DNA of 64,000 bases from Lysobacterales bacterium (GCA_022844165.1 JALHMH010000008.1:64001-128000); one strand, 5' to 3'; counted from the stretch's first letter, positions 4,478 to 64,000 are shown. Notes: a model not told the origin generated them from the sequence alone. Numbers and translations are program-made.

Positions 4478-5512
4478 TCAACGCCGCGGCAACAGCGGCA
4501 TCGGGTCTACCGGTTTGCCATTGCGCCGAATTTCGAAGTGCACAAGCACTCGATTGGCGGCGTTTTTGCCCATTTCGGCGATCTTCTGACCGGCTTTGAC
4601 CTTATCGCCTTCCTTCACCAGCCGCACTCGATTGTGGCCGTAAGCACTCAACAGTTCAGGCGAGTGCTTGATGATGATCAGTTCGCCATAACCAATCAAT
4701 CCGGCGCCGCTGTACACCACTTCGCCGTCGCGCGACGCGACGATGGATGCGCCCGGTTCGCCAGCGATGTCGATGCCCTGGCGCGTCGGATCGCCCGCTG
4801 CGTAGGTTACGACGACGCGCCCCTGGGCGGGCCAGATCCAGCCCGCCGAGCTGGGTTGCTCGATAGACACCGGCTTGGGCGCTGCACTGGGCGTCGCGCC
4901 GGCCGCTGTGTTCGCACCAGTCGCTGGGGTGGTGTCAGTCGCTGCCGTCGCAGGCGCGGTAATTGGGGCAACTGCGGGCGCAACGACGGGCTCTGGGGCG
5001 CTCGTGATCGGCGTTTCGGCGGGCGTCGGCGCGGGTGGAGCGGCAATGCCATCCAGTGGGACAGCGCCCTCAGGTACGGTGACGCCGTACCGTTGGTCAA
5101 ACCCCGGATCGCGTGGGCCAACCACCGCGCCGCCAACCCGTTCGCCGCCGACGGGCATTGGTGCACTGGCGATCGGCGCAACAGCCGACGTCGGCTGCTC
5201 TGCCACCGGAGGGGAGGGTGCTTCGGCCGTGACTGCCGGCTGGCCTTCGTTGCTGGCGACTTGCAGGCGCTGTCTTGGGTAGATGGTATATGGCGCTTCG
5301 ATGCCGTTCCATGTCGCCAGATCGCGGTAGTCGACGCCGTACTGCACGGAAATTTTGTACAGCGTATCGCCTGCCTGGACCTCGTGATACCGCGGCGCAT
5401 CGCCGGATGCCTGTATCGCTGGCGGCGGCTCGGTCACTGCCGCCGGTCGCACGACGACCGACTGTTGGCAAGCCGCCAAACTCAGCAGAATCAGCGGTCC
5501 CAGTGCTCTCAT
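4478..5512 (-). CDS. nlpD: LysM / M23 peptidase-domain lipoprotein NlpD
   Basis: Lipobox LAAC, Lys[14 protein letters not shown], Pro/Ala linker, M23 domain GIDIAG...YGHN...HFEIR; downstream of pcm with ATGA overlap. Confidence 0.9.
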
Positions 5513-48210: not shown

Positions 48211-51147
48211 ATGGACATTAGCGCGGCCCGGCTGGCAAACATCGGCGAACACTTCGACGCGCTGCTCGATCTCGATGCGGCCGGTCGCGAGGCTTATCTG
48301 CGCGATCTAAACGCCGACCCGGCATTGGTGCGGGAACTTCGCGCGATGCTGGCGGCGGACGCGCAGCCGCTGGATCTGGCGGCCGCCGTGGCGCAAGCGT
48401 ATGCCGATGTGACGCAACCGATCGGCACGGCGGAGGACGCGAATCCCGATCCCGCACAGTTCGGCCCGTGGATCGTCCGCGGCGTTCTTGGGCGAGGCGG
48501 CATGGGTGTGGTGTATGAAGTCGAGCGCGAGTTCGAGGGTTCGTGGCAACGAGCGGCGCTGAAGCGCATTCGTGGCGGCGTGGATCGAAGCTCGGCGCTC
48601 GCGAGATTCGCCATGGAGCGCAGCATTCTGTTGCGCCTGCAGCATCGCAACATCGCCGCATTCCTCGACGCGGGCGCTGAGGCCGACGGCACGCCGTGGC
48701 TGGTGATGGAACGTATCGATGGTGTTCCGCTGCTCGATTGGTGCGCACAACGCCAGTGCGGGATCAAGGAACGCGTGCGATTGTTCGCCCAGCTCTGCGA
48801 AGCGGTGCAGTTCGCACATCAACACTCGGTGGTGCATCGCGATATCAAGCCGGGCAACGTACTGGTCGACACGACCGGCACGGTGAAACTGCTGGACTTC
48901 GGCATCGCCAAGTTTCTGGGTGAGGCATCGCATAGCGTGCTCGCGGTGACAATCGACGGGCCGATGACGCCGCAGTACGCTTCGCCCGAACAACTGCGCG
49001 GCCAGCCGGCCAGCACGCTGACCGATGTCTACGGACTCGGCACCGTTCTCTACGAACTGTTGTCCGGCCAACGGCCGTACGCGCGCGCTGGCGACAGCGC
49101 GCCCATGGCCTGCGCCCGTGTCTTGAGCGATGAGCCCTGTCGTCCTCCCAGTGTTGTTGTGCGCGAGACGCGCGAACTTGGCGGCAGCGTCGATTCGCGC
49201 GGGCTGCGTGGCGATCTGGACGCCATCGCGCTGCGGGCGCTCGCCCGCGAAACCGATCGCCGTTTTGGCAGTGTCGACGCTCTGCTCGACGATCTGCGCC
49301 GCTATTTGTCCGGGCATCCGGTTCGCACCCGCGGTAACGCCTGGCACTATGTGTTCGGTCGCTTCCTGAGCCGGCATCGGGCGGCCTCCGCCGCGGCCGG
49401 CGTCGTATTGTTTGCGCTGATAGCCACCAGCATCGTTTCCTGGCAAGCGGCCGAGAAGGCGCGTCTGGAAGCCGAACGAGCGGAAGCCGCGCACGCTTTT
49501 TTGCTGTCGCTGTTCGACGCTGCCGATCCGATGCGCGAGGGCTTCAAACTGTCGGCGCTCGATATCGTCTCCGCTGGCGCGCAACGCCTGGCGTCTGGTT
49601 ATGCCGAACAGCCCGAAGCGCGGGCCGAAGCGGCACTGACCATCGGCACCATTTTAGGTCGACTGGGTGACGCGAAAGGGGCGGTGGAGCAGCTGGCCTG
49701 GGAAGATACGGTGAGCTTGCCGGGCAGCGAGCGTCGGGCGGGCGATCGTTTGACCTTTCTTGCGCTCGCGCAGTTGCAACTGGGCGAACTGGCGGCAGCC
49801 GAAAGCGCCGCCAAGCGCGCACTCGACATCGGCACCGCAGCGGATCGACCGATGGCCACGGCGCGGGCGCTGAGCCTGCTCAGCGAGATCGCTCGCCAAC
49901 GCGGCGATCGACAAACGGCCGTGGCGTTGGGGGCGCGCGCGGCGTCGTTCGCGCGTCGCAACGAGGCGTTGCCGGAGGCGGTCGATGTCTTGTTCCAATA
50001 CACCAATGTGCTGCGCGAGAGCGACGACATCGGCGCGGCAAGAGACGTTGCAGAAGAGGCTATCGCCATCTGCGCGACAGCACCGGTCGCCTGCGGTTAT
50101 CGATTGCCGAAAGCGCGCATTCAACTGGCGCCGCTGCAACTCAAGGTGGGCGATATCGATGGCGCCCGAATCGGGCTGGAAACCGCGCTCGCCGAAGCCG
50201 AGCAGTGGCTACCGCCCTCGCACCCGATCCGCATCGACGCGCTGTCCCTGCTGGCGCGAATCGAGGGTGATCTTGGGCAGCACGAAACCGCCATCGAACA
50301 CGCCAAAGAAGCGGTCGACCTGCAGCGCAGGATCGGCAGCAAAAGCGTTCTCCTGGGCGGTTATCTCAATGCACTGGGCGGGCGCTATTCGGCGGCCGGT
50401 CGCGAGCACGATGCGCTCGCCAGTTATCGCGAATCGGTGGCGCATTTCGAAGCCATCGGTCAATCCGATCACCCCTACGCGCTGGCGGCGCTCGGCAATC
50501 GTGGTTCCGTATTGGCCAGGCTGGCGCAGTATCCCGACGCCTTGGCCGATTCGGCCGCCGCGTACTCGGCCTCGCAGCGCGTCTCCGGTCCGGAAGCGCT
50601 CACCACCTTGGCCAAGGGCGTGCAGCTGATGCGAATTCGCGCCCAGGCCGGCGAAAAGGATCTTGCCCGCGAACTCGCGCAAACGCTTGCCCAATCGTTG
50701 ATCCGGCAGCGGCAGCAGGCGCCGATGCTGGTCGATCTCGCCATCCCAGTGAGCGTATTGCTCGCTGGCGAGGACGAGCACCAGGCGGTGCTGGACCTGT
50801 CCGGCCTGGCTCTCGAAGGGCTGCGTTCGCGATCGCAACCGCAACCTCTTCGAGAGAGCGAGGTGCTCAGGCGCCAGGCCGACGCGCTGCGCCAGATCGG
50901 ACAGTTGCCGGCCGCCATCGCCAGCGCAAACGAGGCGCTCGAACTGGCGCTGGCCGCCGATCCCGATGGCAGCGACCAGCGCACGCCTGCCGCACGGATC
51001 GCGCTGGCGCAATGTCTGGCCCAATCGGGCAACTTGCCGCGCGCCCGCGAGTTGCTGAGAACCGCCATCGCCGAACTGCGCGCCACCGAAGATGGCGACA
51101 GCCCAAGAATCGCCGCCGCGACGGCGTTGCTGGATTCGATACGGTAG
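48211..51147 (+). CDS. Hanks-type Ser/Thr kinase with transmembrane segment and TPR repeats
   Basis: LGRGGMGVV, AALK, HRDIKPGNVL, DFGIAK and YASPEQ. Confidence 0.92.
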   Translation: MDISAARLANIGEHFDALLDLDAAGREAYLRDLNADPALVRELRAMLAADAQPLDLAAAVAQAYADVTQPIGTAEDANPDPAQFGPWIVRGVLGRGGMGVVYEVEREFEGSWQRAALKRIRGGVDRSSALARFAMERSILLRLQHRNIAAFLDAGAEADGTPWLVMERIDGVPLLDWCAQRQCGIKERVRLFAQLCEAVQFAHQHSVVHRDIKPGNVLVDTTGTVKLLDFGIAKFLGEASHSVLAVTIDGPMTPQYASPEQLRGQPASTLTDVYGLGTVLYELLSGQRPYARAGDSAPMACARVLSDEPCRPPSVVVRETRELGGSVDSRGLRGDLDAIALRALARETDRRFGSVDALLDDLRRYLSGHPVRTRGNAWHYVFGRFLSRHRAASAAAGVVLFALIATSIVSWQAAEKARLEAERAEAAHAFLLSLFDAADPMREGFKLSALDIVSAGAQRLASGYAEQPEARAEAALTIGTILGRLGDAKGAVEQLAWEDTVSLPGSERRAGDRLTFLALAQLQLGELAAAESAAKRALDIGTAADRPMATARALSLLSEIARQRGDRQTAVALGARAASFARRNEALPEAVDVLFQYTNVLRESDDIGAARDVAEEAIAICATAPVACGYRLPKARIQLAPLQLKVGDIDGARIGLETALAEAEQWLPPSHPIRIDALSLLARIEGDLGQHETAIEHAKEAVDLQRRIGSKSVLLGGYLNALGGRYSAAGREHDALASYRESVAHFEAIGQSDHPYALAALGNRGSVLARLAQYPDALADSAAAYSASQRVSGPEALTTLAKGVQLMRIRAQAGEKDLARELAQTLAQSLIRQRQQAPMLVDLAIPVSVLLAGEDEHQAVLDLSGLALEGLRSRSQPQPLRESEVLRRQADALRQIGQLPAAIASANEALELALAADPDGSDQRTPAARIALAQCLAQSGNLPRARELLRTAIAELRATEDGDSPRIAAATALLDSIR

Positions 51148-56788: not shown

Positions 56789-57111
56789 GCCGCAACTATC
56801 GGCGATTCGGCGTTTCGCTGCGAGCAGGGGTGACTTTCGTGCGGTGAACCGGTACACCGTCGCGTTCAGTTGGTGGGTTCTTGCGGCGATCGGAGTGAGT
56901 GGCACGCGTCCCGTTTCAGGACGCACCGCACGCGAACAGGCATCGATGGTTTTGGGCTGCAAACCCTTGAGTTTGAGGTGCTTCAGGTGGCACTGATACA
57001 GCGCACAAAGCGCTCACGATCTTGCTCGCAGGACAAGCCTGTCAAGGTAGTCATTCCTCACGGTTGAAGGCACAATCACTCCCCCGGTCCGCGAAGGAAT
57101 GCCCGTGAAGG

Positions 57112-57167
57112 TTACGCCGCAATCCTCATCCCGAAGACCACTTCTCCGCGTAGCGGCTTCGTTCAAC
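57112..57167 (+). repeat. Left copy of a perfect inverted repeat of at least 56 bp bracketing the cassette region
   Basis: TTACGCCGCAATCCTCATCCCGAAGACCACTTCTCCGCGTAGCGGCTTCGTTCAAC is the exact reverse complement of 63945-64000. Confidence 0.95.
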
Positions 57168-57181
57168 TTTGCGTGTTAGAG

Positions 57182-57625
57182 ATGAAGAGGATGCGCGTAC
57201 TGTGCAGTGACAACTTCTACCACGACGGCCGCGGTCCAACGTTGGTCCGTGTTCACTTGGCGGATGGGTCCGCGCACATCGAGGCGATCGACTATCAGCT
57301 ACCCGATTCGGACGGCGGTCCGGAATTCAGTCGGCATCTGCTGTTCAGTCGCGCACAGGTGTACATGTTCACGCCCGAAGAGGTGGAGAACTACATGACT
57401 GCGCAGTCAGACTGGAGCAAGTCAGATCGTGGCGCGCTCGTTTCACTCGGCAAAAGCAGCTGGTTGTCATCGTTCAGTCAGCGGCACCTCGAGCGCTGTG
57501 AACACTATCGGGCGATGTTCTATGACGAGTTCTTGGACATTATCTGCGAGGGAATCACCAGCGAGCCCGGGTACTTCATCTCTAACAAAACCATGCAGCC
57601 GACGGGCCAGGGCGCGCGCGGCTGA
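57182..57625 (+). CDS. Hypothetical protein in gene cassette A
   Basis: ATG directly follows core site GTTAGAG (57175-57181); the ORF reads through the complementary CTCTAAC into the attC. Confidence 0.75.
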   Translation: MKRMRVLCSDNFYHDGRGPTLVRVHLADGSAHIEAIDYQLPDSDGGPEFSRHLLFSRAQVYMFTPEEVENYMTAQSDWSKSDRGALVSLGKSSWLSSFSQRHLERCEHYRAMFYDEFLDIICEGITSEPGYFISNKTMQPTGQGARG

Positions 57626-57640
57626 TGGTTGTCGTTGGGC
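57580..57640 (+). other. attC site (61 bp)
   Basis: R'' CTCTAAC, L'' ATGCAGC, L' GCTGAT, R' GTTGGGC; R'' is complementary to the cassette's own GTTAGAG. Confidence 0.85.
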
Positions 57641-57692
57641 CCCGCATGCTAGTTCTCGGTAACTCGTCCCATGCTTATTAGGAGTGAATTTG

Positions 57693-57967
57693 AGTGAACG
57701 TCTCGGAAAGCGCTCGCTTAGCTATTATGGCCTCTTTGGAAAATGCTCCATCAGGCTCCTTGCCTGTCTTGGTGGTCGGCTATCGCTATCACGAAGACCA
57801 ACGCATTCCTTTTGTGGAAATTGAGTTTTATCCGCCGAAGAGCATTAGCGAGGATTCCTGCAGGTGATGGATTGACCTTTTATGAGGTACTCCCTGATTC
57901 CAGCGAATTGATTCGTGATAGAACGCTTCTGTTTCAGGACGGCAGTTTTCTTCTTTCCACGCAGTAA
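57693..57967 (+). pseudogene. Probably frameshifted hypothetical gene in cassette B
   Basis: AGGAG RBS then GTG; MNVSESARLAIMASLE...FYPPKSISEDSCR stops near 57865 and a second frame continues GDGLTFYEVLPDSSELIRDRTLLFQDGSF; AT-rich. Confidence 0.45.
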
Positions 57968-58006
57968 GAAGAAAATTTGGTTGAATGGCTGGCAGATTGA
58001 AAATGA

Positions 58007-58089
58007 ACTTAACGCTTGTTGGCAACCTGCCAAAGGTGCGAAGGCGACAGTACCTGCCTCCACGGTCAGGGTTAGCTCGAACGTTGGGC
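58007..58089 (+). other. Degenerate attC site
   Basis: ACTTAAC...GCAACCTG...CAGGGTTAGCTCGAAC-GTTGGGC; R'' does not match the upstream core. Confidence 0.6.
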
Positions 58090-58337
58090 TGCGGATTGAG
58101 CGTGCGGCTTGATCGCGCTTTGGTCACATCGCGCAGCGCGTCACCAGCGGCTTATTGCGCTCATCCAGTGGGCGACTTCGCCGCAGCATTCCAGACAACA
58201 GCGTCGCGCCATGCCGCGACCCACGGGACACGTCGCTCTTGTGGGTCGCGCTACAGCGCGACGCTCTTTTCTGTTCCGGTCGGGCAGCGTTTGCCAAACT
58301 GTCGACGTCAGGTGCCTAAGTGCACCAAAACACCGTA

Positions 58338-58421
58338 GCCCAACAGCAAGCTCAATCGGACCGACGCTCTGCTGGGTTGCTTCGACCAATCATCCCTAAG
58401 CGGCGGCCGCTTAGCTCGAAC
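58338..58421 (+). other. attC site truncated just before R'
   Basis: GCCCAAC (complement of GTTGGGC at 58083), CTCAATC...GCTTAG-CTCGAAC, then no GTTRRRY. Confidence 0.75.
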
Positions 58422-58582
58422 TGGACGACTTCTCGAATCGACTACGATTCGGGTCTCTTTACCGTTCATGCTACCGCGCAGTCCACCATGGCCTACGCGG
58501 CGCGACAGTCGGGGGTGCGAGCCAGCTCGGTGGAGGTCCGGTTAGGGGAAATCTGGGCCACCCTTGCGGATAGTCGATGCTC

Positions 58583-58849
58583 CTAACCAGCGTGGAGTTC
58601 CTCCCGGATGATCCGCCTCAGCGTGCGCTCAAGCGTCCCTTCACTCTCTGCGATGTGCCCACGAAGCACCTCATTGATAAGGGTCTGGTAGTTGCCGCCG
58701 CCCACGACGCGACCGCGAAACCACGCCAAAACATCTGCATCCAGGCGGATTGTGATGCGTTCTTTCCCCAGGCTCTCGGCCTGCAAGCGCGCAAGCGCTG
58801 GGACATCCTTGATGGACCTGGCTCCCGAAAAATCGTATTCGTCGCGCAT
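58583..58849 (-). CDS. brnA: BrnA family antitoxin
   Basis: MRDEYDFS, KERITIRLDADVLAWFR and NYQTLINEVLR. Confidence 0.9.
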   Translation of the reverse strand: MRDEYDFSGARSIKDVPALARLQAESLGKERITIRLDADVLAWFRGRVVGGGNYQTLINEVLRGHIAESEGTLERTLRRIIREELHAG

Positions 58850-58851
58850 AT

Positions 58852-59130
58852 TTAGCTCACCAACTCTCGATAGTGACGCGCTTCGCCAGGGCTGGCACTG
58901 CGCGCCGAAATGATTCGGACTACGTCTTCATCGCGCTCGGTCCAGACCACGAGCAGAACCGACCCGATGAATCCGCAACCGAGTGTCACGAACCGAGCTT
59001 CTTCTTCTGCATCAGGGTCTTCCCGCGTGATGCTCAGCGGATCAAGCAACGCTCCGATGGCGTCGGCAAAGTCAACATCGTGACGCTTGATGTTGGCAGC
59101 ACGCTTTGATTCATCCCACTCGAAGTTCAT
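58852..59130 (-). CDS. brnT: BrnT family toxin (RNase)
   Basis: FEWDESKRAANIKRHDVDFADA and VRIISARSA. Confidence 0.92.
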   Translation of the reverse strand: MNFEWDESKRAANIKRHDVDFADAIGALLDPLSITREDPDAEEEARFVTLGCGFIGSVLLVVWTERDEDVVRIISARSASPGEARHYRELVS

Positions 59131-59136
59131 GCCGCC

Positions 59137-59165
59137 AGTGTATGCACATCAAGCATACGACGCAA
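59137..59165 (-). promoter_or_regulatory. Leaderless sigma-70 promoter and palindromic operator of brnTA
   Basis: TTGCGT-N17-TACACT-N6-ATG; GTATGC-N7-GCATAC palindrome at 59140-59158. Confidence 0.75.
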
Positions 59166-59171
59166 GGGCGC

Positions 59172-60214
59172 GAAGCGCTGATCGCGCAGTATGGATCGCA
59201 ATAGCAAGCGCATCAGCGGCGTGCGATGAGCGCCATTCTTACCTGCCGCAGCATACTCGGCTGCCTGGATTGGCGCTGCCCGGACTGCGCGGAGCGGCGC
59301 GAAACGCCGCGATCCTGCGGCCATCGCAATTGCCCGCAGTGTCAGAACCACACGACCACCGAATGGCTGGAGCGACAACGCGAGAAGCTGCTGCCCGTCG
59401 ACTATTTCATGGTCACGTTTACGCTCCCTGCGGGGCTGCGAGCGCTGGCGCAAGCGCAGCCAAAGACGATGTACTCAGCCTTGTTCTGCGCCGCCTCCGA
59501 GACCCTCAAAGGCTTCGGCGAGCGCAAACTGCACGCCGAACTCGGCCAGTGCGCGGTGCTGCACACGCACAACCGTCGACTCGATCTGCACCCGCACGTG
59601 CACATCGTCGTACCCGGCGGCGGCATCGACCGCAAACGCAAACAGTGGCGCAAGATTCAAGGCAGGTACTTGTTCAACACCTTCGCCCTCGCGCGCGTAT
59701 TCCGCGCCAAAATGCTGCGCGCGCTTGAGCGTGCGGGCGTGTCGATACCGATCGGCTTGCCACCGAAGTGGGTGGTCGATTGCCGCAACGTCGGCCGCGG
59801 CGAACCGGCGCTTCGTTTCGTTTGCCTTGGCAAACGAACGAATCAAAGACAGCTGTCGCGTTAACTCTATCGCGGCGTCATTCGCGAGCGCGATCTCGTG
59901 TCTTACGATGCGCAATCCGGCACTGTGACCTTCCGCTATATCGACGCCAGCACACAGCGGCCGGCGTATGCGAACTGCCCATCGCACAGTTCCTCTGGCA
60001 TGTGCTGCAACACGTGTTGCCCATCGGTTTGCGTCGCGTGCGCGACGATGGGTTCCTGCACGGCAAAGCCAAAGCGCGACTGACGCTCGTGCAGCTGATC
60101 CTGCGCGTGCTCATCGCGCAGCGCGAACAAAAACCCCGGCCGCCGCTATGCTGTCCGAAGTGCAAAACGCCGATGCGCTTGATTGGACCAATCTTGCGCA
60201 GGCCGGATGGATAA
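59172..60214 (+). pseudogene. IS91-family (HUH/Y2) transposase, inactivated
   Basis: Zinc domain SCGHRNCPQCQ, YFMVTFTLP, HUH motif HPHVH and QHVLP...RRVRDDGFL. 5' truncated; stops at 59202 and 59862; insertion at 59817-59852; frameshift near 59970. Confidence 0.9.
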
Positions 60215-60322
60215 ACCACCGATTGCGGATCGGCTTTTCGGTAAGCGTCCGACGCCGCACATCTAGATTCGGAGTTTTGTCTTCGCCAATCCTGTTCTCA
60301 ACGCGACGTTGAGGCTAGATCG

Positions 60323-60511
60323 ATGCGAGGTGAGCGGTTGGGGGCGAGCGCGTGGTTTGCGCGGGTTTGGTTCTTTCAGCGTAGCGGCCTGAGTGCCCGA
60401 GCGTACTGCGCGGCGCAGGGCATTTCGTACTCGACGTTCATGGGGTGGCGCTCGCGGCTGGTGCGCGAGCTGGCGGGTGGCCGTTTGCCGTTTCGGCGCT
60501 TCGTGCGATGA
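60323..60511 (+). CDS. tnpA: IS66 accessory protein TnpA
   Basis: FQRSGLSARAYCAAQGISYSTFMGWR HTH motif. Confidence 0.8.
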   Translation: MRGERLGASAWFARVWFFQRSGLSARAYCAAQGISYSTFMGWRSRLVRELAGGRLPFRRFVR

Positions 60512-60837
60512 CACCGACGCTGCCGTTGTTCGTGTGCGCTGAGGCGGTGGATTTTCGTCTCGGGATCGATGGTCTGGCGCTGCGGGTGCAGGCGAGTCTG
60601 GGTCCGCAGCGGGCGTTGAATGCTGCGCATGTGTTTTTCAATCGGGGGCGGGACAAGGTCAAGGTGCTGTGGTACGACCGGCACGGCTGGTGGTTGATGT
60701 ACAAGCGCCTGGAGCGCGGTCGATTTGCCTCAATACCGAGCGGCGCGCTGAGCGATGTTGAGCTGCGGTTGGTGCTCGAAGGCGTGGATTTATCGGTGCG
60801 TCGATTTGCCCCGGTACGCGGGGTGCGAGTGGCATGA
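60508..60837 (+). CDS. tnpB: IS66 accessory protein TnpB
   Basis: VDFRLGIDGL, VFFNRGRDKVKVLWYD and KRLERGRF. Confidence 0.92.
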   Translation: MTPTLPLFVCAEAVDFRLGIDGLALRVQASLGPQRALNAAHVFFNRGRDKVKVLWYDRHGWWLMYKRLERGRFASIPSGALSDVELRLVLEGVDLSVRRFAPVRGVRVA

Positions 60838-60911
60838 GAAGAGTATGGCTTTTTGCCGGCAATATGCTGATTTTGCTGGCTTTTTGCGTGGCGATTCGTA
60901 GTGTTTCTGAC

Positions 60912-62444
60912 ATGCAGATTGCCACCGACGATGCCCCAGTTCCTGCCGAAGTCCACCGCGCTGTGGTGGCCAAGCTTGAGGCGCTGACGATCGCATTCGA
61001 GAAACTTCAATTGCAGTTCCAAACGCTGCTCCGCCAGCGCTTCGGATCGAGCAGCGAGAACATCAAACAAATCCCACTGTTCGGCAGCATGGATGTCGAA
61101 GTTATCGAACAGGACAAGGTGTCGACGCCCGCGCCGCCGGCGAAGAAGGTCGTGGCGCGCGAGCGCGTGCTGTTGCCCAAAGACTTGCCAGTGATACGCG
61201 AAGTGATCGATGTGCCGGAGGCCGACAAGCTCGCGGCCGACGGCACGCCGAAGACGCAGATCGGCGAAGAGATCACGGTGAAGCTGGGCTATCGCCCGGC
61301 GGCATTCTTCAAGCGCGAGATCGTGCGGCCGAAGTACGCCGATCCGGCGGTGCCGGAGGCGGGCGTGACGATCGCTGCGCTGCCGCCGCAACTGCTCGAT
61401 GGTTCGTTTCTTGACGCCACCTTAGGCGCTCACCTGCTGGTCTCGAAATATGGCGATCACCTGCCGCTGTATCGCCTGGAAGACATCTACGCACGCGGCG
61501 GCGTGGCGCTGTCGCGCAGCACCTTGTGCGATTGGGTGATCGTGCTGACGGATCGCTGGCTGCGGCCGCTGGCGCAGGCGCTGAAGGTGCAACTGCTGCA
61601 GCAGAACGTGATCCATGTCGATGAGACGCCGCTGCCGCTGCAGCGCGATGGTCGGGTGGTCAAAGCGCGGCAATGGACCTACACCAGCCGCGATCCGAAG
61701 ATCACGCTGTACGAGTTCACCGAGGACAAGGAAGGCGTGCACGTTCGCGAGTTCTTGCAAGGCTGGCGCGGGTATCTGCAAGCCGATGCCGCGAGCAATT
61801 ACGATGCGCTATATCGCACGCGGCCTGAGGTGGTCGAAGTCGGATGCTGGGCGCATGCGCGGCGCAAGTTCTTCGATGTCGCAGCGGCAGCGGATAAGAA
61901 CGCCAAGCCGGGCGAGAAGCCGCAGCGCATCCTCGCGCATGATGCGCTGGAGATGATCGGCGAGCTGTTCGCCATCGAACGCGCGGCCACTGAGGCGGGC
62001 GACGATCACAAACAGCGGCGAGCGCGGCGACGATCGCAGGCGCAACCTGTCCTCGACAAGATCAAAGCCTGGTGCGAAGACAAACTTGCAGACGTCCTGC
62101 CGAAATCACCGACGGCGGGTGCGCTCAGCTATCTGCTCAAGCGCTGGGACGTGTTCACGCGTTACTTAGAAGACGGTCGCATCGCCATCGACAACAACGC
62201 CGCCGAGCGCGCATTGCGGCCGGTGACGATCGGTCGCAAGAACTGGCTATTCGCCGGTAGCAACCGCGGCGGCGACGCGTGCGCCATCGCCATGAGTTTG
62301 ATCGCCACCGCCAAGGCACATGGCCACGATCCGCTCGCGTATCTCACCGATGTGCTGGCGCGATTGCCGACGCTGAAGGCCAAAGACATCGACAGCTTGC
62401 TGCCGATGAATTGGACAGCGCCAAAACAACCAACGACTGCCTGA
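60912..62444 (+). CDS. tnpC: IS66 DDE transposase TnpC
   Basis: FGSSSE, KYGDHLPLYR, HVDETP, GCWAHARRKF and IDNNAAERALR...GRKNWLFAGS. Confidence 0.95.
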   Translation: MQIATDDAPVPAEVHRAVVAKLEALTIAFEKLQLQFQTLLRQRFGSSSENIKQIPLFGSMDVEVIEQDKVSTPAPPAKKVVARERVLLPKDLPVIREVIDVPEADKLAADGTPKTQIGEEITVKLGYRPAAFFKREIVRPKYADPAVPEAGVTIAALPPQLLDGSFLDATLGAHLLVSKYGDHLPLYRLEDIYARGGVALSRSTLCDWVIVLTDRWLRPLAQALKVQLLQQNVIHVDETPLPLQRDGRVVKARQWTYTSRDPKITLYEFTEDKEGVHVREFLQGWRGYLQADAASNYDALYRTRPEVVEVGCWAHARRKFFDVAAAADKNAKPGEKPQRILAHDALEMIGELFAIERAATEAGDDHKQRRARRRSQAQPVLDKIKAWCEDKLADVLPKSPTAGALSYLLKRWDVFTRYLEDGRIAIDNNAAERALRPVTIGRKNWLFAGSNRGGDACAIAMSLIATAKAHGHDPLAYLTDVLARLPTLKAKDIDSLLPMNWTAPKQPTTA

Positions 62445-62761
62445 TCCGGCGATGTTTGGCTAGATGTGCGGCGTCGGACGGATACGCTTTTCGCAACTCC
62501 AACAAGCCCACCGATCCGCAGCCCCGCGCACTGTTTGACGACAGCATCGAACACAGCGCCGGCCACTCATTTTGCAAAGGAGATTACGCAACGACTCGAC
62601 GATTCAACCGCATCGCAAACGCACCGCTCAGCGCAGAGCACGGCTAAACTCGGCCAACGTTTATCGATGCGCCCACAGCCAATCGGCAACGCGCCAGACA
62701 ACAGCCAAAGCGCGAAGATCTTTCCCCTATAAAGATGACACCAACCTGCGAGACCGGGCTT

Positions 62762-62814
62762 GTTCAACCCGGGATAGATCGCGGCTTCGCGCGATCTATC
62801 CCTATTCGTTAGGC
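62762..62814. other. attC-like hairpin at the 3' end of the IS91-like element (53 bp)
   Basis: GTTCAAC-cc-GGGATAGATCGCG-gcttcg-CGCGATCTATCCC-tattc-GTTAGGC. Confidence 0.75.
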
Positions 62815-63210
62815 CGCACTCGTGGCAGTGGAAGGCTGGAAGTAGATGTAGCGCCAGACTACCTGCCAGCCAGATGAGCCAAGTTCGAAGAAGAGTTGGT
62901 CTGTTCCTTCCTCCGACTTGGGTCCGCTCTCGCGCTGGTAGGTCATTCTCCAGTTAAACGTGTAGACAGCGCTTGTTTCCCAAGTCCTGAGCACGTGACT
63001 CGACTCTGAGTACTCGAGCACAGCAGCGTTGCTTGCGAACTCTCGATAGCTCTCGGCGCACTTCTCCCCACCAGCGGCAAACTCGACAAACCCTGGGCCA
63101 ACTATGACCGCCTTTTGGTGAAAGCAGTCCTCCAGTCCGTCAAACTGCTTCGTCTTCCATGCGGCATCGATGATTCCAATTACCTTCCGTATAGCGGTCT
63201 CGTCTGGCAT
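62809..63210 (-). CDS. NTF2-like / DUF4440 protein in a gene cassette
   Basis: SnoaL-like pattern (AAWKTKQFDGLEDCFH...GWQVVWR); GGAGG RBS; stop lies in GCCTAAC; cassette ends are 12-bp inverted (GTTAGGCCGCAC). Confidence 0.8.
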   Translation of the reverse strand: MPDETAIRKVIGIIDAAWKTKQFDGLEDCFHQKAVIVGPGFVEFAAGGEKCAESYREFASNAAVLEYSESSHVLRTWETSAVYTFNWRMTYQRESGPKSEEGTDQLFFELGSSGWQVVWRYIYFQPSTATSAA

Positions 63211-63283
63211 CTTGGTCCTCCACGGGTTCAAGGCGCTTCGCCCGGATTCTGCTGCAGAAGAGGGGCAGTGCGGTTCCTGTGCG

Positions 63284-63418
63284 GCCTAACGTTGCGATAA
63301 GCGGTAGTTTTTCTGTTGCGCTTTTGAGTTACACTCAATGAGCACCGCGAATTTAAAAGCGCAACAGAAAAACTATCCAGTGGAGCGAAGCGGAACGAGC
63401 TTGATCGCCTTGTTAGCG
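63284..63418 (-). other. Long attC site (135 bp)
   Basis: Minus strand: CGCTAAC, ATCAAGC...GCTTAT, GTTAGGC; perfect internal 21-bp stem 63305-63325 / 63355-63375. Confidence 0.88.
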
Positions 63419-63419
63419 A

Positions 63420-63854
63420 TTACCAAAATTTCCACCATGATTTTTTCGCGTTGCCACTTCCAAAGCCTTCAGGGTGCTTCACGCCAGAATCACCGATTAT
63501 TTCCCAAGACGCTTTTGAGTCAACATACATATGATGAGCCACCTTTAGCTTTTCTTGGCCAACAGTAATGGTGCCCACAGGAATGTACATATTGCTTTCG
63601 TCATTCTCTCCAGGAAGCGCTGACCCACAAACACTGCAAAAGTATGAATGCCAATCATGCTTGGGCTTTGACCAGTAAGTTATCTTGTCTTGGCCTCTTA
63701 TCCAAGTGAACTTGTCGCGCCCGACTATCGACACAGCGATTCCACCGCTACCGGTCGATTTGCGACAGATCGAACAATGGCAGATGAACACGTCCGAAAT
63801 TTCGGTATCTACTTTGTACGCAACAGCTCCGCAGTTACATTCTCCCTCAATCAC
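63420..63854 (-). CDS. GFA / CENP-V family protein in a gene cassette
   Basis: GECNCG, CHCSICRK and FCSVCGS zinc motifs; GAGGAG RBS; AT-rich; flanked by GTTAGCG and CGCTAAC. Confidence 0.9.
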   Translation of the reverse strand: MIEGECNCGAVAYKVDTEISDVFICHCSICRKSTGSGGIAVSIVGRDKFTWIRGQDKITYWSKPKHDWHSYFCSVCGSALPGENDESNMYIPVGTITVGQEKLKVAHHMYVDSKASWEIIGDSGVKHPEGFGSGNAKKSWWKFW

Positions 63855-63878
63855 GTTTTGACTCCTCTTCGTGTGCCC

Positions 63879-63951
63879 CGCTAACGCTGGAGCTAAGCGG
63901 CCACATCAATCGCGAAGCGATTGATTGGTCCGCTTGAGCGAACTGTTGAAC
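63879..63951 (-). other. attC site (73 bp) whose R'' box is the end of the right inverted repeat
   Basis: Minus strand: GTTCAAC, CTCAAGC...ATCAATCGC-ttc-GCGATTGAT...GCTTAG, GTTAGCG. Confidence 0.88.
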
Positions 63952-64000
63952 GAAGCCGCTACGCGGAGAAGTGGTCTTCGGGATGAGGATTGCGGCGTAA
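63945..64000 (-). repeat. Right copy of the inverted repeat (reaches the window edge)
   Basis: Exact reverse complement of 57112-57167. Confidence 0.95.

Follow-up and report, generated by a model that had tools for sequence, protein, structure and literature searches.

IS91-family elements with an attC-like 3' end lie antiparallel at the R'' position of integron attC sites

Introduction

Integron gene cassette arrays are usually seen as being reshaped by the integron integrase (IntI) alone, with two known kinds of invader of the cassette recombination site attC, the IS1111-attC group of insertion sequences (IS) and the group IIC-attC introns, and ISfinder holds IS91-family entries with an extra integrase gene, for example ISShvi3. 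Passages of PMC9229058 on attC invasion cite both kinds of invader, place the group IIC-attC introns antiparallel to the cassettes, and name ISShvi3 (PMC9229058). For the IS91 family, the sections of PMC13181058 on transposition describe a functional intermediate in the form of a bottom-strand single-stranded circle with a terIS-oriIS junction, targets of GTTC or CTTG in >90% of events with T at position 2, a terIS that in IS801 and IS1294 consists of a palindrome followed by a terminal GTTC, and, for IS91 itself, an upstream accessory open reading frame (ORF), oriIS palindromes and one-ended transposition (PMC13181058). Here we analyse a 64,000-nucleotide stretch of a Lysobacterales bacterium genome (the window; positions 64001-128000 of contig C8 of genome G000), which holds three related IS91-type ends within a cluster of gene cassettes, together with the wider family of elements to which these ends belong. 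A full-text literature search returned a passing remark only on such elements; their conserved site, R'' target and fixed antiparallel orientation were undescribed in the texts it covered.

A family of IS91-type elements with conserved ends

The pattern GGCTT-N0-1-GTTCAAC matches the window three times against 0.00 matches expected, and none of 100 shuffles held a match. Two of the ends read CGGCTTCGTTCAAC (57154-57167 on the plus strand and 63945-63958 in minus-strand reading) and the third reads CGGGCTTGTTCAAC (62755-62768, plus strand), exactly where a preliminary description of the window had located IS91-type ends proposed to double as integron attachment sites; a 53-nt hairpin site (62762-62814) and a 73-nt attC (63879-63951) were likewise found where it had placed them. 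The three ends are parts of three decayed copies, el1, el2 and el3, of one IS91-family element type. The window copies are wrecks; the interest lies in the family.

No intact copy is present in this genome, in which all four Y2_Tnp matches are partial. Its six element 5' ends each start GTTGAACGAAGCCGC and are preceded by different sequences, mostly attC sites, and its four el2-type and two el1-type 3' ends are identical through a 53 to 55-nt hairpin and diverge directly after the final GTT. An el1-type copy on contig C13 lacks the IS66-family element that interrupts el1, is identical through the hairpin and diverges past GTTAGGC, which bears out the earlier statement that the third end lies downstream of the IS91-family transposase once IS66 is removed. 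Since the 3' ends remain the same through the hairpin and only then diverge, the hairpin at 62762-62814 is the element's own, in agreement with the claim that the element carries an att site, and this feature is conserved in relatives.

Among 2912 candidates, 267 longer homologues of the N-terminal transposase frame were identified at E <= 1e-10. A contig scan of one genome per species gave 595 pattern matches, 571 of which encode transposase relatives, and 79 loci were kept, spanning Gammaproteobacteria, Desulfobacterota, Acidobacteriota, Chlorobiaceae and others. The intact element is about 2.3 kb long and consists of a 5' end, a tyrosine recombinase gene, an HUH Y2 transposase gene, approximately 200 nt of non-coding DNA and a 3' hairpin end. 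Copies within each of five assemblies share ~2.3 kb bounded by GTTGAAC... and ...TTCGTT, with similarity ending at the element ends except for a 26-nt common flank in one pair (L036/L037).

The 5' end, GTTGAAC-G-AAGCCGC plus a mini-palindrome, has its motif in 50 of 57 loci, and the GCCGC-loop-GCGGC palindrome (CCGC-N2-5-GCGG) is located 11 nt in from the end in 56 of 62 cases; the bottom strand closes here with ...CTTC-GTTC-AAC, combining a palindrome with a terIS-type GTTC tetranucleotide. The 3' end comprises GGGCTT-GTTCAAC and a 50 to 64-nt attC-like hairpin closing in GTT (motif in 51 of 58 loci). The terminal heptamers are complementary in 42 of 49 pairs (GTTGAAC/GTTCAAC in 29 and GTTGGAC/GTCCAAC in 13), a co-variation expected both of an attC split across cassette ends and of inverted repeats bound by one protein. 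The central idea of the preliminary description, IS91-type ends doubling as parts of attC-type sites, holds for this IS91 subgroup, as does its expectation that the motif, a hairpin and variable cassettes would be conserved downstream of intact homologues.

An active-looking copy occurs in 20 public runs; the contigs of four of these stop at the element ends, the element has 4-7x the depth of its flanks, and several different flanks follow the terminal GTT. A DNA search of PLSDB with the copy from a Klebsiella metagenome-assembled genome (MAG) matched the hairpin only, and relatives were found in five records by protein search. In an Endozoicomonas MAG (L052 2900-3000 and 5315-5430; L049), tandem element copies are separated by runs of the 13-mer GTTAGAAACTATC, which opens with the crossover triplet.

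Insertion at R'' and orientation

Insertion duplicates no target sequence and occurs at a GTT complementary to the inverse core of R'' in a resident attC (RYYTAA|C-AA), so that element and cassette array are in every case antiparallel. The R'' position of the interrupted attC is taken by the element's terminal GTTCAAC, and the hairpin of the element adjoins the stop codon of the upstream cassette and the true R'', the element lying between R'' and the remainder of the resident site. A covariance model built from 17 resident attCs (R1) gave 78 matches on the oriented loci, comprising 71 resident attCs, all on the strand opposite to the element, and seven same-strand matches to the element's own hairpins. 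In 35 of the 54 loci whose flank is 100 nt or longer, an opposite-strand match stops precisely at the first heptamer of the element, and a further 36 resident attCs lie on either side of the element in 23 loci from 19 assemblies. An anchored stem scorer, used at a 1% shuffle threshold, classified 60 junctions as 26 opposite, one same-strand, two undetermined and 31 none; the same-strand case is the hairpin of another element in a tandem, and many of the junctions scored as none resemble attCs by eye. Two earlier versions of this scorer missed obvious sites, and minimum free energy folding was too noisy for calls of attC polarity and was replaced by the anchored scorer and covariance model. R1 misses long attCs, for example 63284-63418 of the window and 9888-9975 of L001, our reading of the present locus, which covers 9.8 kb past the window end.

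The 3' flank opens GTT-A-(G/T)-(G/A)-(C/T), the complement of a typical inverse core, and often contains the stop codon of the neighbouring cassette; its first heptamers (n=50) include GTTAGGC (10), GTTATGT (8), GTTGGGC (4) and others. The 5' flank closes S-N-N-T-T, giving a target consensus of S-N-N-T-T|GTT-A-K-R-Y. Read on the bottom strand, AAC is preceded by GCCT, ACAT, GCCC and similar tetranucleotides, rather than by the GTTC or CTTG targets of IS91.

Occupied and empty versions of one site can be compared in class 1 integrons. The integron of the E. coli IncC plasmid RCS41_p (NZ_LT985243.1) has the order aadA2, cmlA1, aadA1, inverted integrase and IS91 transposase, qacEdelta1, sul1, and the occupied site between aadA1 and qacEdelta1 reads ...gaacgaatt|GTTGAAC...element...CCTTATTTG|TTAGACattatt.... 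Plasmid R100 has the uninterrupted aadA1-qacEdelta1 junction (...gaacgaattGTTAGACattatt...), which places the insertion at G|TTAGAC (on the cassette strand, GTCTAA|C in the inverse core of aadA1), with zero bases duplicated. The RCS41_p transposase is 49% identical to that of the window. This intact family member (L086; NZ_LT985243.1 7945-14008) is annotated merely as 'site-specific integrase' and 'IS91 family transposase'. Outside attC sites, a cheR-like gene in L014 is split at GGCATTG|TTAGGC, which has the same 12-nt pattern; there is no target duplication, and by our interpretation the reading frame is restored across the site.

The 3' hairpin as an attC-like site

The hairpin consists of R'', a short spacer, L'' with one extra base, a loop, L', a 6-nt spacer and GTT. 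Across 49 hairpin sequences 97.7% of cells are paired, compared to 30-42% in slid controls, and double changes occur at seven of 12 stem pairs (56 cells), a result matched by 0 of 500 shuffles. Hairpin polarity follows element orientation in all 50 cases, the 5' arm having the shorter spacer and the extra base that are canonical for attC. R1 also matches the hairpins on the element's strand, with the qualification that its seeds mostly bear the element's GTTCAAC as R'', which favours these matches. With that bias in mind, the element has the 3' attC expected of a gene cassette (R''/L''/L'/R', an extra-helical base and a conserved structure), and it is also bounded by G|TT and begins with bases that complement its own R'' (42 of 49 pairs). 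The R' half missing from the hairpin is supplied by the element's own first heptamer, so that a complete attC-like site would be present once in a circular form. No attC family exists in Rfam, and the sole Rfam match in the region was a chance microRNA below threshold. The terminal hairpin is tandemly duplicated, in part or whole, in L005 (~2700-2730), L043 (~2420-2470) and L067 (~5310-5360), with the second unit beginning within or just past R''; neither of the cut positions discussed below fits these junctions cleanly.

Transposase and recombinase

Both intact transposases tested belong to the IS91 family of Y2 enzymes, matching NF033538 at 355 and 383 bits (cut-off 125). An ORF of at least 150 amino acids (aa) precedes the transposase gene in 56 of the 66 loci with at least 1000 nt upstream, and all seven of the upstream products tested have Phage_int_SAM_4 and Phage_integrase domains, which is the upstream tyrosine recombinase that the preliminary description had predicted for homologues. 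The best family model for this recombinase is that of the integron integrase (TIGR02249), at 143-165 bits for six full-length proteins against a cut-off of 265, with XerA and XerD scoring about equally; the seventh, a 251-aa ORF of L057 cut at an A-run, scores 90 bits. It is 28-34% identical to host IntI, lacks the ~31-residue IntI insertion in eight of eight aligned sequences, and is therefore not an IntI as defined by that insertion and a TIGR02249 score of >265 bits. The catalytic R, K, HxxR, H and Y residues are invariant, and among solved structures the closest in sequence is IntI4 (2A3V). The domains found were limited to Y2_Tnp and Phage_integrase; a DEDD transposase of the IS110 family, as in IS1111-attC elements, was not among them.

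The recombinase gene is a single ORF in 19 loci and is split at an A8 or A9 run (GGCATTAAAAAAAAG) in 35 of 61, with the catalytic C-terminus (HxxR..GH..Y) open in the -1 frame. From the sequences this looks like programmed -1 frameshifting or transcriptional slippage, which argues that the recombinase is used and regulated. Examples of the split among L019-L078 include L057 (3700-4000) and L031 (3720-4010).

A possible mechanism and its alternatives

We lean slightly towards a mechanism in which an element with IS91 ends and an attC-like site of its own is released as a bottom-strand circle, folds a junction hairpin, and is inserted by a recombinase at the R'' of a resident attC. The HUH transposase would nick GTTC|AAC and free the bottom strand as a single-stranded circle, as shown for IS91. 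The terIS-oriIS junction of this circle would then fold as a complete attC-like hairpin, and the element's recombinase (host IntI being the less likely agent) would perform a single-strand exchange, the partner being the top strand of a resident attC or a 12-nt sequence that mimics one. One idea for use of the top strand is that the lagging-strand template is more accessible. A recombinase is favoured for integration because the conserved target letters (TAAC-AA) are placed where a core-binding recombinase would read them, and because the four bases that an IS91-type enzyme would read (GCCT, ACAT and others) vary and do not keep T at position 2. A broader proposal, which we put forward tentatively and with somewhat less than even confidence, is that these elements may be a widespread undescribed integron parasite that fuses two single-strand DNA machineries: an HUH rolling-circle transposase, producing a bottom-strand circle whose joined ends fold as a complete attC-like hairpin, and an IntI-like recombinase lacking the IntI insertion, which inserts this circle at R'' of the attC top strand and is made via a programmed -1 frameshift in most lineages.

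Several observations weigh against a recombinase-mediated insertion of such a circle. No read shows the circle, and the contigs of the four public runs hold no 3'-to-5' joint, although rare forms would be invisible in contigs. The junctions do not decide the enzyme: as the element end and the target share AAC/GTT, a cut in the HUH style (RYYY|AAC) and one in the recombinase style (RYYYAA|C) give identical sequence. A bottom-strand attC hairpin should pair with the bottom strands of resident sites, yielding direct insertions at R', and only antiparallel insertions at R'' are observed, which the model by itself does not explain. The R1 seeds bearing GTTCAAC favour junction and own-hairpin matches, the 36 non-junction matches being free of this bias. 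There is also no attC at the 5' junction in 19 of 54 loci according to R1, or in 31 of 60 according to the stem scorer, and L006 has ATT for GTT at its 3' junction, which fits neither cut unless it reflects a later mutation.

The foremost alternative, which we consider unlikely, is a plain IS91-family IS moved by its HUH transposase alone, the hairpin being an oriIS palindrome, the target tetranucleotide overlapping the attC inverse core by chance, and the recombinase being accessory (a regulator or multimer resolver). It would account for the full IS91-family transposase, the lack of target duplication, junctions compatible with an RYYY|AAC cut and a 5' end with the terIS layout of IS801 and IS1294, palindrome then GTTC; IS91 too has an upstream accessory ORF and oriIS palindromes in the account of PMC13181058. 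It would not account for the tetranucleotides next to the hairpin (GCCT, ACAT, GTCT, GCCC), which mostly have C at position 2 where IS91 keeps T, with GTTC/CTTG in >90% of events (PMC13181058), nor for conserved target letters (TAAC-AA) that fall on the other side of such a cut. Moreover, the hairpin shows unpaired features and a polarity of attC beyond those of a mere palindrome, and the recombinase is IntI-like, catalytically complete, conserved, and apparently under frameshift control in the 35 split loci.

We regard as improbable that the element is an ordinary, if selfish, gene cassette that host IntI moves via its attC, with both genes as cargo. Insertion of a bottom strand by IntI gives entry at attI or R' in array orientation, whereas here none of the 71 resident attCs is on the element's strand and the 35 junctions are at R''; being antiparallel and at R'' instead of the crossover R', the element is not behaving as an ordinary cassette. 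The G|TT boundaries at both ends, the complementarity of the first six bases to the element's own R'' (42/49) and the attC-like hairpin are all cassette-like, but pairing of the ends runs five bases past the R box and is accompanied by an IS91-type palindrome, neither of which a cassette needs, and both genes are kept intact across phyla. IntI is encoded in nine of 10 host genomes tested, several copies lie within ~10 kb of intI, and one copy occupies the attC of a first cassette beside attI (contig C27, below), as this alternative would have it.

The decayed copies and the cassette cluster of the window

Nothing in the window is active: el1 is frameshifted, interrupted by IS66 and lacks its 5' end, el2 contains a repeat and a deletion, and el3 is a stub. 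The first and third end motifs are the tips of a longer inverted repeat, which within the window comprises 56 nt at 100% identity (57112-57167 / 63945-64000) and in the contig extends to 247 bp at 96% identity. At the left edge, el3 (56922-57167, minus strand) is a 247-bp stub of an element 5' end and matches that of el2 at 96% identity over 247 bp; it contains the terminal GTTGAAC (57161-57167, GTTCAAC on the plus strand), the mini-palindrome and the start of the tyrosine recombinase gene, and is truncated beside a chromosomal two-component system. The junction between el3 and the first plus-strand cassette (57161-57180, GTTCAAC TTTGCGT GTTAGAG) is not an attC; it has no stem and was detected neither by the stem scorer ('none') nor by R1. 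Among the three sites in which the preliminary description had placed GTTCAAC at the R'' position, the 53-nt hairpin stands as the element's own, the 73-nt attC is instead a resident site whose R'' has been replaced, and this third site with its 7-bp spacer lacks a stem.

Cassette A (57173-57640, plus strand) has a 150-aa ORF (57173-57625) without a Pfam family and an attC at 57580-57640 of plus polarity, matched by R1 at 47.7 bits (it is a seed of R1). Two further plus-strand attC-like sites follow, one seen by eye at 58011-58090 and undetected on that strand by R1, the other at 58338-58426 with a degenerate R' and a weak R1 match (L001 2338-2426; 12.3 bits, E 0.76). A toxin-antitoxin pair on the minus strand, antitoxin BrnA (58583-58849; PF14384, 1.4e-13) and toxin BrnT (58852-59130; PF04365, 3.7e-23), is located within the cluster at 58583-59130, immediately 5' of the truncated el1.

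The left part of el1 (59226-60240, plus strand) is an IS91-family transposase pseudogene, with frames 59226-59864 and 59768-60214 that match Zn_Tnp_IS91 (3.9e-22) and Y2_Tnp (1.5e-18 and 9.9e-06) of Pfam and are 76% identical to the best intact homologue; the element 5' end and recombinase gene are missing. An IS66-family element with inverted repeats (60241-62485, plus strand; PF05717, PF03050), encoding TnpB (60445-60837) and TnpC (60834-62444), is inserted in the 3' non-coding part and is flanked by an 8-bp duplication, GCTTTTCG, at 60233-60240 and 62486-62493. The right part of el1 (62486-62808, plus strand) holds the 3' non-coding DNA, CGGGCTT-GTTCAAC (62755-62768) and the hairpin (62762-62814, matched by R1 on the plus strand and part of the hairpin alignment), its last base being G 62808. 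The insertion point of el1 is the R'' GCCTAAC (62808-62814; GTTAGGC on the plus strand) of a DUF4440 cassette, whose ORF (62809-63231, minus strand; PF14534) has its TAA stop codon (62809-62811) inside this R''.

Further along the minus strand are a long attC of the GFA cassette (63284-63418), identified by eye from CGCTAAC...GTTAGGC with an internal 26-nt inverted repeat and giving no match with R1, the GFA-family ORF itself (63420-63854; PF04828, 6.4e-23), and the resident attC of a Barstar cassette (63879-63951; body 63879-63944; R1 60.1 bits, a seed). The R'' position of this attC (63945-63951) is now the first heptamer of el2; on the far side of el2 and past the window end, at L001 9491-9503, are the Barstar ORF and true R'' (GTCTAAC). 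From its 5' end (63945-64000, plus strand), el2 continues to window-equivalent position 65503, and its ORF (L001 8058-9218) joins PF13495 to the C-terminus of PF04986, an internal deletion having fused the recombinase N-terminus to the transposase C-terminus. The el2 recombinase gene also contains a ~160-bp repeat with internal hairpins (L001 8377-8536, window-equivalent 64377-64536), of which dozens of copies at 80-98% identity occur on most contigs and which resembles a miniature inverted-repeat transposable element or a repetitive extragenic palindromic sequence. Beyond the window a DUF6959 cassette-like ORF was identified (Pfam) in addition to Barstar.

The genome's integron integrase gene is on another contig, C27 (465 bits), where an element copy occupies the attC of the first cassette beside attI. 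No intI was found in the window cluster (56922 to ~66430), whose right end (L001 10296-10440, window-equivalent 66296-66440) has blocks near-identical to the attI and intI-upstream region of C27. Lacking intI but ending in an attI-like region, the cluster resembles a second integron that has decayed and no longer has its integrase. Its cassettes form two convergent sub-arrays, plus-strand at 57168-58426 and minus-strand at 62809-66300, bracketed by the inverted 247-bp copies of the element 5' end, and inversion of a sub-array via the element copies or inverted att sites is possible. Derivation of el3 and the plus-strand sub-array by inversion of the 5' part of el1 was considered and dropped, a simple inversion yielding no intact element. 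An empty site of el1 or el2 was sought in this genome and none was found, nor was an empty chromosomal site of the whole cluster established among 29 relatives. Only one of the 29, a same-genus relative, has the neighbouring two-component genes and no attC within 17 kb; its other flank is non-syntenic. The region is flanked by opposed large Pkinase + TPR proteins (window 48211-51147, plus strand; L001 11162-13843, minus strand), and between the left one and the cluster are an FG-GAP repeat protein, a PF00144 serine hydrolase and a LytTR two-component pair.

The preliminary description had also proposed that the element collects or moves gene cassettes. That it does so, for example by one-ended rolling-circle transposition with its neighbours, and in this way built this intI-less cluster, is very improbable: such transposition is known for IS91 (PMC13181058), and element remnants at the left edge of the cluster and inside it, the lack of intI and the attC-free relative would suit it, but no copies were found that share flanking cassettes past their ends (save the 26-nt flank of L036/L037), similarity in multi-copy genomes stops at the element ends, and the attI-like end suggests the decay of an integron more than the transposition of a block. 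The flanking cassettes are those of resident arrays. The hybrid system described earlier thus survives as an HUH element with its own att site, here in broken copies, which lies antiparallel at R'' and for which no gathering of cassettes is seen.

Implications for integrons

By separating a cassette from its attC, the element should change which cassettes stay mobile. If the broader proposal above is correct, each insertion would sever a cassette from its attC and add an attC in inverted orientation to the array, and the element could freeze cassettes, promote inversions like the convergent sub-arrays seen here, and help to seed clusters without intI. It is already present within one clinical class 1 integron, that of RCS41_p, and its position in the aadA1 attC on an E. 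coli IncC plasmid makes it relevant to the reading of resistance arrays. The family also explains a recurring annotation puzzle, the pairs of 'integrase + IS91 transposase' within integrons. More generally, a rolling-circle transposase and a tyrosine recombinase may here use a single folded single-strand site in common, a natural example that bears on the origin of integron recombination from Xer-like enzymes.

Comparison with known systems

With the IS91 family the element shares an HUH Y2 transposase with a zinc-binding N-terminus (NF033538), the absence of target duplication, a terIS that combines GTTC with a subterminal palindrome, an oriIS end that is also palindromic, and an accessory ORF upstream of tnpA. 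It differs in that the palindrome at oriIS mimics an attC, extra-helical base included, and shows compensatory changes, that its target is the attC inverse core (RYYTAAC-AA) rather than GTTC/CTTG, and that its accessory gene encodes a complete IntI/Xer-like recombinase. Gene cassettes share its R''-L''-loop-L'-R' layout, are likewise bounded by G|TT and begin with bases that complement their own inverse core, and they too are placed in arrays in genomes with IntI; unlike them, the element has its own recombinase and transposase, is inverted at R'', and has ends whose pairing continues past the R box. The recombinase resembles IntI and Xer enzymes in its full catalytic set and scores best with the integron-integrase model and, among solved structures, with IntI4 (2A3V), but its scores of 143-165 bits fall below the cut-off of 265 and it lacks the ~31-residue insertion of host IntI. 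IS1111-attC insertion sequences and group IIC-attC introns likewise invade attC at a fixed position and orientation, using other enzymes (a DEDD transposase, and a reverse transcriptase with a ribozyme, respectively), and to our knowledge neither carries an attC-like site of its own. The element is a third kind of attC invader, built from different enzymes.

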